Source: Chamaesiphon sp. (lineage in GTDB: Bacteria; Cyanobacteriota; Cyanobacteriia; Cyanobacteriales; Chamaesiphonaceae). Taken from it: a stretch of DNA of 17,089 nt. Below the pieces are notes generated by a model, which made no database searches, was not told the origin of the DNA, and saw only the letters and a list, made by a program, of their open reading frames with translations. How positions within the stretch are numbered: the first letter of the stretch is position 1; the number at the start of each line of letters is the position of its first letter. Shown here piece after piece: positions 5,860 through 12,165 of this stretch. The translations under genes were made by a program, and so were the position numbers. The stretch is taken from positions 1-17,089 of the forward strand of contig CBDFFH010000026.1 of the NCBI GenBank assembly GCA_965246715.1, read 5' to 3'.

Positions 5860-6009
5860 CACTAGCACCGCACTCGATTGAAATCGGTGCTAGTGGTTCA
5901 AAGTCCGCCTTCGCGGACTAAGATATTCAGTCCGCGAAGCGAAAAGTGCTGCTGAGGCGCGAGCTTTTGGGGGGAAGCTTCCCCCCCAAAACGTCGCTTC
6001 GGGTCGGTC
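5860..6009. repeat. Composite palindromic repeat, copy 1, with nested hairpin inserts
   Basis: Stems CACTAGCACCG...CGGTGCTAGTG, CTTCGCGGACT...AGTCCGCGAAG and TTTTGGGGGG-AAGCTTC-CCCCCCAAAA. 5881-5949 matches 12020-12088 at 65/69. Confidence 0.85.
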
Positions 6010-6580
6010 GATTCGTGACAAGTTAAGAAAAGCCGATAGTTGTCAAGGTTGGAAAGAAAAGAGGTGAAACTGTGATGAGGAGTGAGTTAGAGTCTAGGAT
6101 GTGAGCCATGCCAAAAAAGCGGCGCACTGTGGGCGGGTTTCCCGCCCATACAAGTGCGACAAGACAGCGGACAACAAATCGCGACCAAGTCAACAAGCGT
6201 TATCACAACGATTCCTGACATTTCCTGCCGAAATATTTGAGAGAGTATTCAAAGAATTACTGCCAGAATTCGAGCGAAAATGGCACAGCCGCAAGCAAAG
6301 GCCACTGCCAGAAAGTATTCAATTTGCGCGGACTAAATTTGCCAGAATTTGGGCGTGCGATGGCTCAACATTGGAAGCAGTATTTAGAAAACTAGAGAGC
6401 CTATCGACAGTACCGAAAAATCAATTAGCTGGAAAGATTGGAGTAGTTATCGACATAGTAACTCGACTACCAGTAGAAATTTGGTTTCAGGAGAATGAAA
6501 AAGCCAGTGACATGAGGTTTGAAGTAGACATGCTGAAGCTAGTTAAGCCTCAAACATTAATGTTACTAGATCGAGGATTC
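6010..6580 (+). mobile_element. IS4-family transposase remnant (internally deleted, 3' truncated)
   Basis: SQQALSQRFLTFPAEIFERVF, IWACDGSTL (first catalytic D) and LLDRGF (second D), after which it breaks off. The likely original start is ATG 6108 (MPKKR...TTNRD) in another frame, joined at ~6187. The left end near 6010 is approximate. Confidence 0.8.
6120..6167 (+). repeat. 48-nt hairpin mini-element inserted in-frame in the IS4 transposase 5' end
   Basis: CGGCGCACT-GTGGGCGGG-TTT-CCCGCCCAT-ACA-AGTGC-GACAAGACAG, with AGCGG at both junctions. Removing it gives MPKKRTTNRD. Confidence 0.7.
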
Positions 6581-7040
6581 AGGCATTAGCATAGATTTCC
6601 CACACACTACCAGCGATCGCACCCTGTAAGCCAGAGCTAATATTGACCCAGCTTTTTCCTAACCAATCATTTAGCAGGTATCCCATTATAGCACATTTGT
6701 TCTGGTCTAGATCTTGGCGATAAGGAATAGAATTTCCACTCCAAGGCTCTATCTCTCGATCGAAACCGAACAAGAATCCATTTTGAGCGAGATTAGTGTG
6801 AACTTTGGGCTGTAATGTGTCCCAGTCGAAGTTTAACTGTCCGCCTTTCGATCGAACGTGATGGCTAAGTCCGCCAAGAAACGCCACCCCAAGGTGACTC
6901 AGAAAGCTACACTTTTGAAAATCAAGGGTCAAGTCTAAGGAGGTTTCAATTTTTTGGTTTACTGTTTGCCAGATCTCTAATAAGGCTTGGCAATGCTTAG
7001 ATGTATGATAAATGACGGGGATTTCTATTTTGACAGTCAT
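6579..7040 (-). pseudogene. Truncated STAS-like + GHKL/HATPase-type ATP-binding protein
   Basis: N-terminal LDFQKCSFLSHLGVAFL is STAS-like. The ORF ends at WEIYANA, which resembles the start of a HATPase N-box, exactly where it meets IS4 sequence. Confidence 0.6.
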
Positions 7041-7293: not shown

Positions 7294-7488
7294 ATGAATA
7301 TTCGCGAACGAGTCCTCAAAGAAACCGAAAATGTCTCAGATATTATCTTGTCAGAAGTGCTGGAATATCTGCAATACCTGAAAGCCAAACACCAACAACG
7401 AATTCCCGAAACCGCTCTACTGAGTGAGTCTGTGCTGCAAGAAGATTGGCTCAAGCCTGAAGAGGAAGCAGCATGGCAAGATTTATAA
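7294..7488 (+). CDS. DUF2281-type putative antitoxin
   Basis: 64 aa with EVLEYLQYLK and LLSESVLQEDWLKPEEEAAWQDL; overlaps the downstream toxin gene by 16 nt. Confidence 0.8.
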   Translation: MNIRERVLKETENVSDIILSEVLEYLQYLKAKHQQRIPETALLSESVLQEDWLKPEEEAAWQDL

Positions 7489-7808
7489 GGGGTGATATCG
7501 TCATAGTTCCTTTCCCCTTTTCGGACTTAACCCAAACGAAACGCCGTCCCGCATTAGTAGTTGCAATTTTGCCAGGTGAGGACTTAATTCTTTGTCAGAT
7601 TACCAGTCAAACCATAATGGATGAATATGCTGTCCTAATCTCCGAGGAAGATTTTATTGCAGGCGGTTTAAGAGAACGCAGCAATATTCGACCAAATCGA
7701 TTATTTACGGCATCTGAAAACATTATCATCTACAAAGCTGGTCAAATTTCACTAGAAAAATTGGATAATGCGATCGACAAGATCGTTGAAATACTGCAAA
7801 AGTTTTAG
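7473..7808 (+). CDS. PemK/MazF-family toxin (type II TA)
   Basis: Motifs RGDIVIVPFPFSD, KRRPALVV and CQITS. Confidence 0.92.
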   Translation: MARFIRGDIVIVPFPFSDLTQTKRRPALVVAILPGEDLILCQITSQTIMDEYAVLISEEDFIAGGLRERSNIRPNRLFTASENIIIYKAGQISLEKLDNAIDKIVEILQKF

Positions 7809-7856: not shown

Positions 7857-10056
7857 CGCAATCCTAAGCTGTTTGTTGGAGTTCGGCATATTGCAAATAG
7901 ACTATCCCTGCATCTTCTCGATCGATCGCCAGCCCAAACCATTGTAATCGATCGAGATTTTCACCAATCGCATCCAATTTCTTCTGGGCATTTTTGCCTG
8001 TAAATTGGTTGGAGATCTGCGTCACTGTCCATTCACCACCACTGCTGCGTAACAGGTCGCGGATGGCGGCGAGTTGGTCTTTGGGTTGGTTCGACCATTT
8101 TTGCTGTTCGAGGGGTGCGATCGCGATTTCTGCTTCGTCTGTGATGCCTGGGAGGGTGGTTTGGGTGGCTTGAATTGTTTCGGGGGCTTGGTATTCGGGG
8201 CGGAGCCAGCGGATATGTCCGTTCCGTTCTTCGACGGCGCGTTCGGCGTTGAGGGCGACGAGACGTTCGAGGATGGTTTCGGTGATTTTGGGGTTAGGTT
8301 TACCTGCTAAGTCTTGCCAACCGTAGGCGGCAAATACGGCTGTGTCGTCTAGATAGGGCTTTATTATTTTCCCTAAATACTTATATCCCCACTTTTGCAT
8401 CTCTGATTCTTCAACCAAGAAGCCAGAACCATGCAGACAAACTCCTCTGCCTGAAAGTCTGTCATTACTTTTTAATTGATTGCTGCTAAGAATATTTGCA
8501 CCCGATCTGAGGTCGCTGAAGATTTCGCCGACACCGTGCCATTTAAAATCGAGTTTCTCTGCACGATCTTCTGGTGTTTCTGCCAAGCCTTCATCGATTA
8601 CATATCCTAATCGCATGATTCTTGTTGTTGGCAAATCGTTGAATTCAGCCCCAGTCATAGCAATTCTTACATCTGCTCCACTATCAGCCCACAGGTGATT
8701 AGGGATTGCAAAAAATAATCTAATTGCTTTTTTGGCAGCTAAATGATTTTCGATTACTTTTCTTTGCAAAACCTGACTTATGCTGTTTGTCGTAATGAAT
8801 CCAAATCTGATCAGCTTCTCATATTTTAGTAAAATTGCAGCTTTTTCCCACCAATACATTACATAATCGACAGTCTCAGGAACTTCTTTATATGTTTGTC
8901 TAATTGTTTCTGAATAACCATCTCCGAGTGATTCTCTCATCCGTGAATTCCCAATAAAAGGAGGATTTGAGACGATATAATCTGCATCTGGCCATACCGC
9001 AGCGCGGGGATTTAAGTACTTGTAAATAACGACTCGATCGAGCGGATCTGGTACATCCTCACCTGTCACCGGATGCTTCATCATCTTGCCACCCCAACGC
9101 GATCGAACCTCCCCCGTTTTCGCGTCTAGATCTGGCTCTGTACCGTCATAAGCCAACACCGCATCCCGACATTCGATATTCCCAAACGCTTGTAATACGG
9201 GTTCCGGTGGTGCTGCATCGCCATACCGCTTAAAATACCATTGCAGATACCCAATCCAGATTACCAGTTCGGCGATCGCCGCCGCACGCGGATTGATTTC
9301 GATGCCCAAAAACTGCGCCGGATTCACCTGCTCCAACACATTCAACTGGACATTTCCCGCCACATCTACTAGCCGTGCAATGGCTTCTTTCTCCAACCCT
9401 TTCAATAAATCCAGCGTCACATACAAGAAATTCCCCGTACCGCAAGCCAGATCTAAAATCCGCACCTGGCGTAACTGCGTCAAAAAGGCTTGAATCTCCT
9501 GCTCCGCCTTCTTCTGCTGCGCCGCTGTCGGTTCCTTCCCCTCAGCCGTGACTAAAATCCGCCGTAACTCCAACTCCACCTCATCCCACTGTTGGCGCAA
9601 CGGTTCCATCACCACCGGACGCACCAACCGCTCCACATACGATCGCGGTGTATAATGTGCCCCTAAGCGGCTCCGCTCTCTCTTCTCCAACGCCCGCTCT
9701 AATAACGTCCCAAAAATCGCAGGCTCTACCTGACTCCAATCCTTCGCCGCTGCTGCATACAAGATTTCCAACTGTTCCTTGGGCAAGTCAAACGCCGTCG
9801 CATCTTCAAAAAAGCTCCCATTAAACCGCAAAATCCGCTCGAAGCCGAAGGTTCCACCTGTATTCATCGTTTGCCAAAGCTGTTCGATTTCGGGCTTAAA
9901 TGTGTGCGGGTTGGGAATCCAGCGATCGCGTAATGCCTTGGTAAATACCTCCCCCTTCAATAATTCCACATCCTCGGCAAACATCGTAAAAATACACCGC
10001 ATCAAAAAGTTCGCCACCTCATGCGCCGAAACGGGCGATGGTTCGCTGTCGATGCC

Positions 10057-10195
10057 GCCGTCGATTGAAATCGAGGCTACTGGTACAAAGTCCGCCTGCG
10101 CGGCCTGAGATCTAGAGTCCGCCTTTGCAGATTTGGCACTAGTCTTAGTCCGCGTAGGCGGACTTTGCATTCCCAGCGGCGGTTTCAACCGCTGA
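10057..10195. repeat. Palindromic repeat of the 5860/12020 family inside the RM coding sequence
   Basis: CGATTGAAATCG, CAAAGTCCGCCTGCGCGG...CCGCGTAGGCGGACTTTG and AGCGGCGGTTTCAACCGCT; the reading frame is preserved. Confidence 0.8.
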
Positions 10196-10546
10196 GGATT
10201 CTCCTCCAACCACCGCGACAACTTCGCCAATTCCGCCGCTACTTCTCGCGTCACCCGCGCCCGATATTTCTCAGGATTGAGCGATTGCGGATCTGTGAAA
10301 ATTGCCACAAACCTGTCAAATATTTCTGGTTGCGCCAGATCCTTGAGATTAATTGTCTGACGCGCCCCATAACTCCCATACTCGCCGCTAAACCCCTCCC
10401 ACACCTCAAAATGCGAACCGATATCGCAGGTCATCAAAAACGGTGGTAGCGATGGCAACATCCGGTTATAGGCATAAGATTTCGGGCGTTGCTGGATTGA
10501 GGTATGATTGGTATCGATCGCCAATAATTAATTTGGGTTAAAAGTA

Positions 10547-11322
10547 ATGGAATGTCCTGAATGTAAGTCAGTCCGCATCAATAAGAACGGTTGCAAAAGA
10601 GGGAAGCAGAACTATATTTGTGTGGAGTGTGGTAGGCAATTTATAGAGAATTATGAATCTCCCAGAGGATCTGCCCAAGAAATTAAACAAGAATGTTTAA
10701 CCATGTATGTAAATGGCATGGGATTTAGAGCAATTGAGAGAGTCAAAGGAATTCATAATACAACGATAATGGATTGGGTGAAGCAAGTAGGTGAACTCCT
10801 ACCAGATTATTACGACCCAGAGCTAACGCCGGAAGTAGGTGAGTTAGATGAATTAGAAACGTTTGTGGGGTTTAAAAAAACAAAATCTGGCTGTGGACAG
10901 CAGTAGATCACTTCCGCCCAGGAATTTTAGGATGGGTATTAGGAGACCACAGTGCTCAAACATTTAAACCTTTATGGGATGAGGTAGTAAATAAGTGGAA
11001 ATGCTACTTCTATGTCACAGATGGGTGGCCAGTTTACCCAATGTTTATTCCTGATGGAGACCAAATCGTTAGCAAGACTTACATGACCAGAGTAGAAGGA
11101 GAAAATACTAGACTGAGACATTATCTAGCTCGACTAAAACGCAAAACACTTTGCTATTCTAAATCTACACAAATGCTCAAGCATTCAATTCGCTTACTTA
11201 TTGCGTTGCGGGTGACCCGCGACGCTCACTATCTAAAATTCGATCGAGTGCCAATTCCCACATCAATTAATAGTCACGATCTTAGAGCGCGAGTACCACT
11301 CGATCGCCAAATCATACCTTAA
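10547..11322 (+). CDS. IS1 transposase InsA-InsB, joined by a -1 programmed frameshift
   Basis: Zn ribbon CPEC...CVECGRQF, HTH, ELDELETFVG, slippery TTTAAAAAAAC at 10871-10881, then KIWLWTAVD...YVTDGW...VEGENTRLRHYLARL in the -1 frame. Confidence 0.9.
11203..11226. repeat. 24-nt hairpin inserted in-frame in insB
   Basis: GCGTTGCGGG-TGA-CCCGCGACGC-T; adds ALRVTRDA within IRLLI|HYLKF. Confidence 0.7.
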
Positions 11323-12019
11323 TCCAGCAACGCCAGATTTCGCTTGGTTGAATGCCTTCTGCATCTCATCCCGATAGCCCTTTGTCCCCCGCTTGCCATG
11401 CCCCTTGCTCGAATTGGTACTACCCTGCTTCGCCTCAATCAGGAAGTGACCCTCTTTATAAAAGTCCGCAAATCGCGTCGTCTCAGCCTTCTCACTGAAA
11501 AATTTGATGTTTTTGTCAAAACAATAGCGATCGCCTTCGACACTGCCTTTTGGGGGTGGTACTGGTACAGCTAGAGCCACGCACAGATCGCCAAAAAAGG
11601 TTTGATAATTCGCCCGTTCGTTTCCTTCCGAACCCAACCACTTCTTGAGAAAATCCCCAACTCTTTTGCTATCCGTATCCTTCATTCCAGTCCGAACCTA
11701 ATTAAATATTTCAATCGGATAGCGTCGTCTTCAGCCAAATCACTTCCTGGTCGCTAGAAAGCGATATCCGCGATTCATCAATGAGATCGATCTTTCAAAT
11801 CTCCTGTAATTTTACCTCTATATATCGATCGGGCCACTCTCTAGATAGTCTTTGCACTATATCGATCGACTCTCGAACTCATATACCCACAGGATCTTCA
11901 CCGCTTAGATCGGTTCAGAGCTATAACTTAGGTTATGCCCATAACTCAGACGATGGTAATATGCTGAAATCTATACTACTGGCTTTTTACGTCGGGAAAC
12001 AAAGGTGTGCGCGCATCGC

Positions 12020-12165
12020 AAATCGGCGCTAGTGGTGCTAAGTCCGCCTTCGCGGACTAAAATATTCAGTCCGCGAAGCGAAAAGTGCGGTCTTGGGGTT
12101 TCCCCAAGTAGAGCACCTTTTAAAGACAGGCGGACTTTGTATTCCGAGGAGTGGTTTTAACCACT
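12020..12165. repeat. Composite palindromic repeat, copy 2, with a 51-nt insert
   Basis: AAGTCCGCCTTCGCGGACT...AGTCCGCGAAG[12079-12129]GCGGACTT, followed by AGTGGTT-TT-AACCACT. Confidence 0.85.

Follow-up and report, generated by a model that had tools for sequence, protein, structure and literature searches.

The locus

The window, by which we mean the whole stretch of 17,089 nt under analysis, is the entire contig C26 of a 6.1-Mb genome (labelled G000). It contains two complete copies, and the beginning of a third, of a short hairpin-forming mini-element, placed in an IS4-family transposase gene and in REPIN-like palindromic repeats. The features concerned are the following (strand given where assigned):

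5875..5938: left portion of a further host REPIN, from the family represented at 12020..12165
5939..5949, + strand: 5' end of a third copy of the mini-element (51-nt type) at the same kind of REPIN tip; the 3' part is missing
5950..6009: several further small hairpin inserts, stacked inside the third copy; landing site of the IS4
6010..6590, + strand: what is left of a 1483-bp element of the IS4 family (DDE_Tnp_1), including its left end; the ATG lies at 6108, and the 48-nt copy is inside
6119..6166, + strand: mini-element of the 48-nt type, lying in codon 4 of the IS4-family transposase gene and keeping the frame of the ATG at 6108
10147..10164: REPIN tip without an insert, of the family at 12020..12165 and with a variant loop; a natural before-state inside the window
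12020..12165: host REPIN-like palindromic repeat of the 51-nt copy; its repeat family flanks the Y1/HUH gene L017 elsewhere in the genome
12078..12128, + strand: mini-element of the 51-nt type (the largest type, 28 copies) at the tip of the REPIN hairpin

The first-pass annotation had described two inserts of 48 and 51 nt with stems, a hairpin around GGG-TTT-CCC and a common tail, all of which are present in the window; the positions that it gave (6120..6167 and 12079-12129) are off by one base, the correct ones being 6119-6166 and 12078-12128. Folded as DNA, the 48-nt copy reaches -17.3 kcal/mol (z -4.56, with 0 of 200 shuffles equally good) and the 51-nt copy -10.2 kcal/mol (z -2.22, with 7 of 200). 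A covariance model of the family scores the 48-nt copy at 65.7 bits, this copy being itself part of the training set. The third copy is broken up by further small inserts and by the IS4.

The REPIN site of the 51-nt copy is empty in a paralogue which is 90% identical over 100 nt, and 193 empty REPIN tips of that kind exist in G000. In the case of the IS4, the site was compared across 15 aligned 5' ends and was found empty in ten, filled in four and not alignable in one. Empty orthologous sites had been named at first as a possible support; empty sites are found for both window copies, and both copies are genuine insertions.

Elsewhere in the window, an MmeI-like restriction-modification gene (7864-11685) is split by an IS1 (10547-11322) and has an internal deletion, and a REPIN lies within the MmeI-like ORF at 10062-10191. 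The segment 7054-7156 repeats 7864-7966 at 81%. At 7294-7808 a small ORF precedes a PemK/MazF-like toxin gene, and the two are likely to be a toxin-antitoxin pair.

Ends of the element and junctions with the target

Concerning the boundaries, the tail AAGACA stands, but the final G of the AAGACAG initially proposed belongs to the target DNA, and the element starts with GCG and not with CG. The base located 3' of AAGACA is G in 82 cases, C in 18, A in 9 and T in 7 (n=116). The detector behind these 116 cases gave 1-14 matches for each of eight alternative tails. Since the target commonly reads A|G, the boundary is ambiguous by one base there. Targets of other kinds (TTT|CAA and GAA|TTG) delimit the element as GCG...AAGACA, without target duplication. 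At these non-AG targets the junctions are hybrid, that is, a target T is followed by the G of the element and the A of the element by a target C, which places the exchange between two bases and leaves none duplicated. Of the proposal that the inserts follow AAG, only "usually follows A" holds across the copies.

The absence of terminal inverted repeats and of a duplication excludes DDE enzymes. Transposition by a DDE transposase, or an origin as a MITE of a DDE transposon (the host IS4 included), is thus ruled out.

Copies and structure of the family in the genome

The strict detector recovered 112 copies in G000 and a single match in the reversed-genome control. The covariance model, trained on 22 copies, retrieved 137 copies at E<=0.1 among 150 scored candidates. 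The 67 distinct sequences fall into 23 sequence types with a common layout. GCG-R is followed by ~5 bp of outer stem, an internal loop and ~7 bp of inner stem, which GG-NNN-CC closes; the terminal part reads (A/T)CAAGACA.

The covarying stems that were anticipated are found, as Watson-Crick pairing holds for 107 of the 115 outer-pair cells over the 23 types; shuffling gave a mean of 55 and a maximum of 79 (2000 shuffles). When the alignment was used raw, both partners vary at 11 of 14 pairs and 86% are paired versus 64%, a paired fraction inflated by the fact that the structure was drawn from the same sequences as tested. In all parsed copies but two, which are mis-parsed (107 of 109), the 3' arm exceeds the 5' arm by 1-3 nt. 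Variants with inverted loops and with perfected palindromes occur among the copies and show template switching, a process that within quasi-palindromes is able to create covariation by itself; the retained arm asymmetry and the fixed unpaired ends are better signs of selection than the covariation. Further inserts of 21-32 nt nest in family members and give forms of 69, 75 and 80 nt.

Length and presence in genes

The lengths in G000 are 47 nt (28 copies), 48 nt (28), 49 nt (15), 50 nt (11) and 51 nt (28), after two 54-nt calls were dropped as mis-parsed 47-mers; across genera the range is 45-53 nt. Codon length, put forward as a trait of the family, was not confirmed as such, with multiples of three in just 56 of 110 copies and 12 of 23 types. 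The expected bias towards such lengths inside coding sequences does exist. ORFs of >=120 codons, which cover 74% of the genome, hold 13 of 111 copies, and 11 of these 13 are multiples of three; most copies are located outside long ORFs, within other repeats. The two 49-mers in long ORFs are in reading frames which begin in or beside the host repeat and are probably spurious. All four copies in Pfam-confirmed genes keep the frame (Pnkp 51 nt, MutS2 48, CobN 48 and a HigB-like gene 51), as does the copy in the IS4. The HigB-like site is empty in L355, and the matches in the genomes G288 and G289 are 17 codons shorter. Frame-keeping is a survival filter in genes and not a design. What the first reading had claimed, namely a multi-copy, structure-conserved and non-coding insertion family, is borne out by the many copies, the covarying stems, the fixed tail, the empty sites and the in-frame survival.

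The IS4 host and its reciprocal link with the element

The IS4 of the window lacks ~250 nt internally (deletion at 6187/6188) and is cut short on its 3' side; as it is already broken, the reading frame is irrelevant for the 48-nt copy there. The four filled sites, all at the identical position, are those of the window, of a second G000 copy on C9 and of L002 and L005 from two other genomes. Of these, L005 encodes a full-length transposase that includes the insert, its 473 aa corresponding to the 457 aa of the empty form plus 16. With an empty form of 457 aa, the objection that intact IS4 homologues naturally have these 16 codons does not hold.

In the opposite direction, the 1483-bp IS4 made 9-bp duplications in six of nine paired copies, five of them being GGG-NNN-CCC, and in three of the nine the rebuilt target is a complete family member split at its loop or tip. 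The copies concerned are the following:

G000 C9:142611-144092, C40:38977-40458, C49:86931-88412; window 6010: IS4 copies inserted in GGG-NNN-CCC hairpin loops

The link is reciprocal, as the element is a landing site of the IS4 and is itself carried, in frame, by the IS4. Two other IS4 copies (G000 C44:43770-43800 and L004) hold a 24-nt insert, a single hairpin whose loop is again GGG-NNN-CCC. Another one, at G000 C31:22023-22081, holds on the opposite strand a 48-nt sibling ending in CAAGCA, and among 14 detector matches for this sibling family there was one clear single-unit copy.

Target sites

At 77 sites, position -1 is A in 59 cases, T in 15 and G in 3, and position +1 is G in 53. The dinucleotide A|G makes up 46 of 70 non-redundant junctions, while AG accounts for 5.6% of dinucleotides. 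For sites outside G000, A precedes the element in 42 of 48 unique rows (two rows being mis-parsed). Hairpin tips are within 5 nt of 37 of the 76 non-redundant sites, mostly on their 3' side, compared with 6.1% of 3000 random sites; the host patterns used left 46 sites unclassified. One small hairpin is used at the identical base by six types (13 copies), a REPIN tip by three types and a heptamer repeat by three types. Different types at one base indicate independent insertions. There are also 11 copies placed directly after another copy, head to tail, and 12 copies of a single type that share one REP site; copies of the same type are in many cases passengers carried along by an amplified host repeat.

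This passive amplification, together with the inverted loops and perfected palindromes, which show template switching on these hairpins, suits an explanation without any dedicated enzyme, whereby replication and repair would move the hairpin by template switching or by patching of tip nicks and the spread would be mostly hitchhiking and gene conversion. We regard this as unlikely. The unpaired ends are invariant across 23-32 types and many genera, the arm asymmetry is retained, the insertions in unique coding sequence (HigB, IS4) are without donor homology, and a genus-wide expansion (17-231 matches per genome) stands against 0-2 matches in three sister-genus genomes.

The hosts include the REP families of the genome's own Y1 genes. 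Both intact IS110 families of the genome insert in the same GTAG-REPs as the element, and both end in TCAAGACAGTATCT, which contains the element tail (8-9 nt in common). Moreover, top-strand-only IS110 pathways are reported in 10.1101/2025.10.25.684509. An IS110 (bridge-RNA) recombinase as the mover, or a descent of the element from an IS110 end, is nevertheless very improbable. The crossover is 6 nt beyond the common motif, and the hybrid junctions, seen where the target is T|C, A|T or A|A, exclude a shared 2-nt core. The motif forms, in the IS110 end, one arm of a local inverted repeat. The donor of IS621 has a 3-bp inverted repeat on its flanks (PMC11208160), and AAG/CTT occupy the position of such a repeat, which explains part of the tail match. 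When the 13-mer of the IS110 end was set against the element in 151 genomes, it had 16, 7, 7 and 6 copies in G134, G156, G215 and G082, where element counts are at background, and 0 in the carriers G010 and G277.

The two IS110 families, with open frames of 333 and 329 codons, have the same right end, and their left-end bridge-RNA-like guides match different GTAG-REP families; they form a natural retargeting pair. Their copies are located as follows:

G000 C22:94339, C43:135596, C47:100512, C15:206393, C5:190418, C15:205138, C34:8233, C14:41232: IS110 copies

Distribution among cyanobacteria

All 27 genomes of the genus, which is probably Chamaesiphon to judge from named records with matching element types, carry the element, with 17-231 pattern matches each against 0-2 in the control and 2,895 in total, overlapping matches included. 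Among 151 genomes of the order, G249 has 76 matches, counts in the three sister-genus genomes are 0-2, and the majority of the rest give 0-10, with controls at 0-5. Inspection confirmed members in G277, G232 and G254. The pattern matches of G257 and G264 were rejected as family members on inspection, and low pattern counts are for this reason noisy. The carriers include Nostoc, Komarekiella, Rivularia, Brasilonema, Moorena, Okeania, Dapis, Xenococcus, a Leptolyngbyaceae and a Chroococcales genome; the last (L090) contains a 51-mer identical to the commonest form of G000. Throughout the phylum, the covariance model was positive in at least 10 of 150 genomes, a figure that undercounts, as 40 candidates were scored per genome.

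BLAST of plasmids with the 51-mer gave nine records, all cyanobacterial, two of them under TnpB or transposase annotations, and the 48-mer gave none. Viral contigs showed nothing convincing, the best score being 15.9 bits among the 80 of 120 pattern loci that were scored. Similarly, no convincing non-cyanobacterial copy appeared, with all 20 loci above 30 bits being cyanobacterial among the 80 listed of at least 116. One member, L050 (G040:C18:2041-2091), directly adjoins a putative tRNA gene. Three others (L045, L047 and L049) lie in what we take to be a 713-codon prolyl-oligopeptidase-like ORF and two TnpB-like ORFs of other cyanobacteria.

A host function, as a terminator, an RNA-stability hairpin or a protein-binding site that is not actively mobile today, would agree with the location of most copies outside long ORFs. 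The abundance is patchy across the order, the targets include coding sequence as well as other selfish elements, and identical copies occur in distant genera (L090), all of which fits selfish spread; such a function would also leave the precise insertion unexplained, and we consider it highly improbable. The family is, with a probability of about 0.9, a mobile non-autonomous insertion family.

Proposed mechanism of movement

Our leading proposal, to which we give somewhat less than an even chance, is mobilisation of a single strand in trans by an HUH nuclease (Y1, RAYT-like) encoded elsewhere; if the family is taken to be mobile and non-autonomous, the odds of an HUH mover come close to even. 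The element would be excised or copied as a folded single strand, the enzyme presumably reading the fold and the fixed ends. Targets might become available as single-stranded or extruded hairpins, and joining would proceed by single-bond strand exchange with no target bases duplicated or deleted. Passive amplification inside REPs, REPINs and the IS4 is seen among the copies, and the spread between lineages may take place inside IS elements and plasmids.

Seen from the opposite strand, the A|G target becomes C|T, and the 3' junction of the element itself is C|T or C|A. Cleavage by TnpA_REP takes place at C|T (PMC3333891), and PMC8266576 reports one enzyme that cuts both CT and CA, as well as a bulge in the REPs of E. 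coli which is required for TnpA_REP activity. The HUH route fits the one-bond exchange, the bulged hairpin, the residence in REPs and the C|T or C|A junctions of the bottom strand. Targets other than A|G (24 of 70) count against it.

Y1 genes are present in G000 and in all five carrier genomes examined, a presence that weighs little as the genomes tested were all carriers. Over 36 Y1 loci in six genomes the element never flanks a Y1 gene in the manner of a REP, and a single copy was found at one locus; the Y1 genes of G000 are flanked by other repeats. Of the co-occurring transposase or reverse transcriptase (RT) that had been looked for, the presence of Y1 and RT genes was confirmed, and a linkage of the element to Y1 loci was not (0 of 36 flanked). 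The GTAG tag is absent from the element, the bottom strand of which starts with TGTC (rarely CGTC or TCTC) 2 nt before the stem. No long autonomous parent with the same ends was found within 4 kb, the matches listed being nested 80-nt copies, an IS4-interrupted copy and chance pairs.

The Y1/HUH genes of G000 are of four types (L016, L017, L018 and L020/L021), each with its own flanking repeat family. Two of these have the Y---Q--HH signature, yet are flanked by long REPIN-like repeats; this signature marks subclass 1.2, generally without IS200-type terminal structures according to 10.1101/279083.

Replichore bias was not found in the near-complete relative G011, where the strands are interleaved along the largest contig (the origin was not located); a run of + strand matches there was rejected as such a bias because the full list is mixed. 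No PF08299 (Bac_DnaA_C) match exists in the near-complete G000 and G011, while 10 of 14 controls match, and dnaA may be missing from the genus (one query).

Mismatches of the G-T and A-C kinds on the GCG...AAGACA strand number 16 versus 6 in 101 unique sequences and 9 versus 3 in the 32 types. This excess weakly favours the GCG...AAGACA strand as the folded one, and its junctions read A|G, not C|T. A folded top-strand transcript would suit the excess as well. In this alternative a processed hairpin transcript would be copied by a group II intron- or retron-type RT into nicks at hairpin tips, and one-base pairing at each end would lead to the A|G preference. The genome has several RT genes (22 RVT_1 matches) and the lack of replichore bias agrees with an RNA route. 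For the small dispersed repeats (SDRs) of Nostoc, an RNA-mediated mobility was reportedly proposed by Elhai in 2008. We find the RNA route rather unlikely, since the ends are exact in nearly all copies, neither 5' truncations nor added bases were seen (with a detector that requires both ends and would overlook truncated copies), and the 4-kb surroundings of the 10 RT loci that were checked contain one element, another match there not being a member. A 1326-codon ORF around G000 C43:22760-23236, which we take to resemble the pol of a eukaryotic LTR retroelement (protease, RT, RNase H, integrase), adjoins a cluster of group II intron RTs and is probably an assembly contamination.

Returning to movement as a folded single strand, it is conceivable, at odds well below even, that the family represents an undescribed structure-reading and scarless single-strand insertion, in which one asymmetric hairpin and a 6-base tail act as both ends, with mutual parasitism between element and IS4. 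The target need in that same, rather doubtful case would be a hairpin tip and an A only.

Comparison with known small elements

The SDRs were the first comparison to be suggested. SDR1-8 of Nostoc punctiforme and relatives are said to measure 21-27 nt (Elhai et al. 2008). The two groups are alike in being tiny, non-coding and dispersed, with compensatory stem changes and precise insertion. SDRs reportedly reside in heptamer repeats, in mini-transposons and in each other, and the element was met in all three. They differ in that the element has 47-53 nt versus 21-27 nt, a two-tier asymmetric hairpin and a fixed 6-nt unpaired tail; it is also most abundant in a non-heterocystous genus and has no fixed target word. 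The suggested likeness is thus sound in behaviour and fails in size, the element being twice as long. Excerpts from the literature give the SDRs "some 20 bp" (PMC2884548), mention them also in PMC3116915, and describe SDR5 as inserted precisely into HIP1 (PMC4390886).

Side stem-loop insertions at a recurring position of P6b are described in PMC4476775, and the four text supplements of that paper contain none of four element motifs. A second group of repeats invites comparison. "Nostoc iterated sequences" are dispersed elements of ~45-55 nt in heptamer repeats of Nostoc. Wright (2001) and Costa (2002) are said to have dealt with them and with extra elements in the P6b loop of the trnL(UAA) intron. 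Their size is similar, and the element is present in Nostoc and in heptamer repeats. That the family is already published under this name is possible, although we hold it improbable.

With the REP/REPIN-RAYT systems, the element shares a bulged hairpin with a short unpaired end (PMC3733652, PMC8266576, PMC3333891 and 10.1101/279083). The TGTC start of its bottom strand may be a variant of the CGTC tag and, should that strand be the active one, its junctions would match C|T and C|A. According to the same papers, CGTC repeats are likewise without a linked transposase. On the contrary, its stem has ~14 bp versus 8-9 bp, it occurs singly or head to tail and not beside a Y1 gene, whereas REPINs are inverted dimers, and it parasitises REPs. 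For CGTC families there was no cyanobacterial report in the portions of the literature examined.

Derivatives of IS200/IS605 are similar in that they are hairpin-defined, without terminal inverted repeats or target duplication. The element differs from them by having no fixed target of 4-5 nt, with only -1 and +1 biased, by one hairpin instead of two ends, and by the fact that no parent IS was found; unlike IS608 and ISDra2, it has no replichore bias. Rfam gave 0 matches in the window at the gathering score. By the tests listed here, the element is not a REP, a MITE, an IS200/IS605 derivative or an Rfam family. In the literature searched no description of the family was found, the SDRs and the Nostoc iterated sequences being compared by their described traits.

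Significance

The family is real, precisely bounded and widespread, and belongs to a class that is known but unexplained. How mobile elements of less than 100 bases move has been an open question since the SDRs were described, and this family makes it testable, as it offers exact ends, at least 23 covarying types that mark the fixed positions, natural empty and filled pairs and a sister genus that is nearly free of it. The enzyme, if found, would be a tool for the scarless insertion of short DNA. For its hosts, the element adds loops of 16-17 residues to working proteins (Pnkp, MutS2 and CobN) and supplies landing sites for the IS4.
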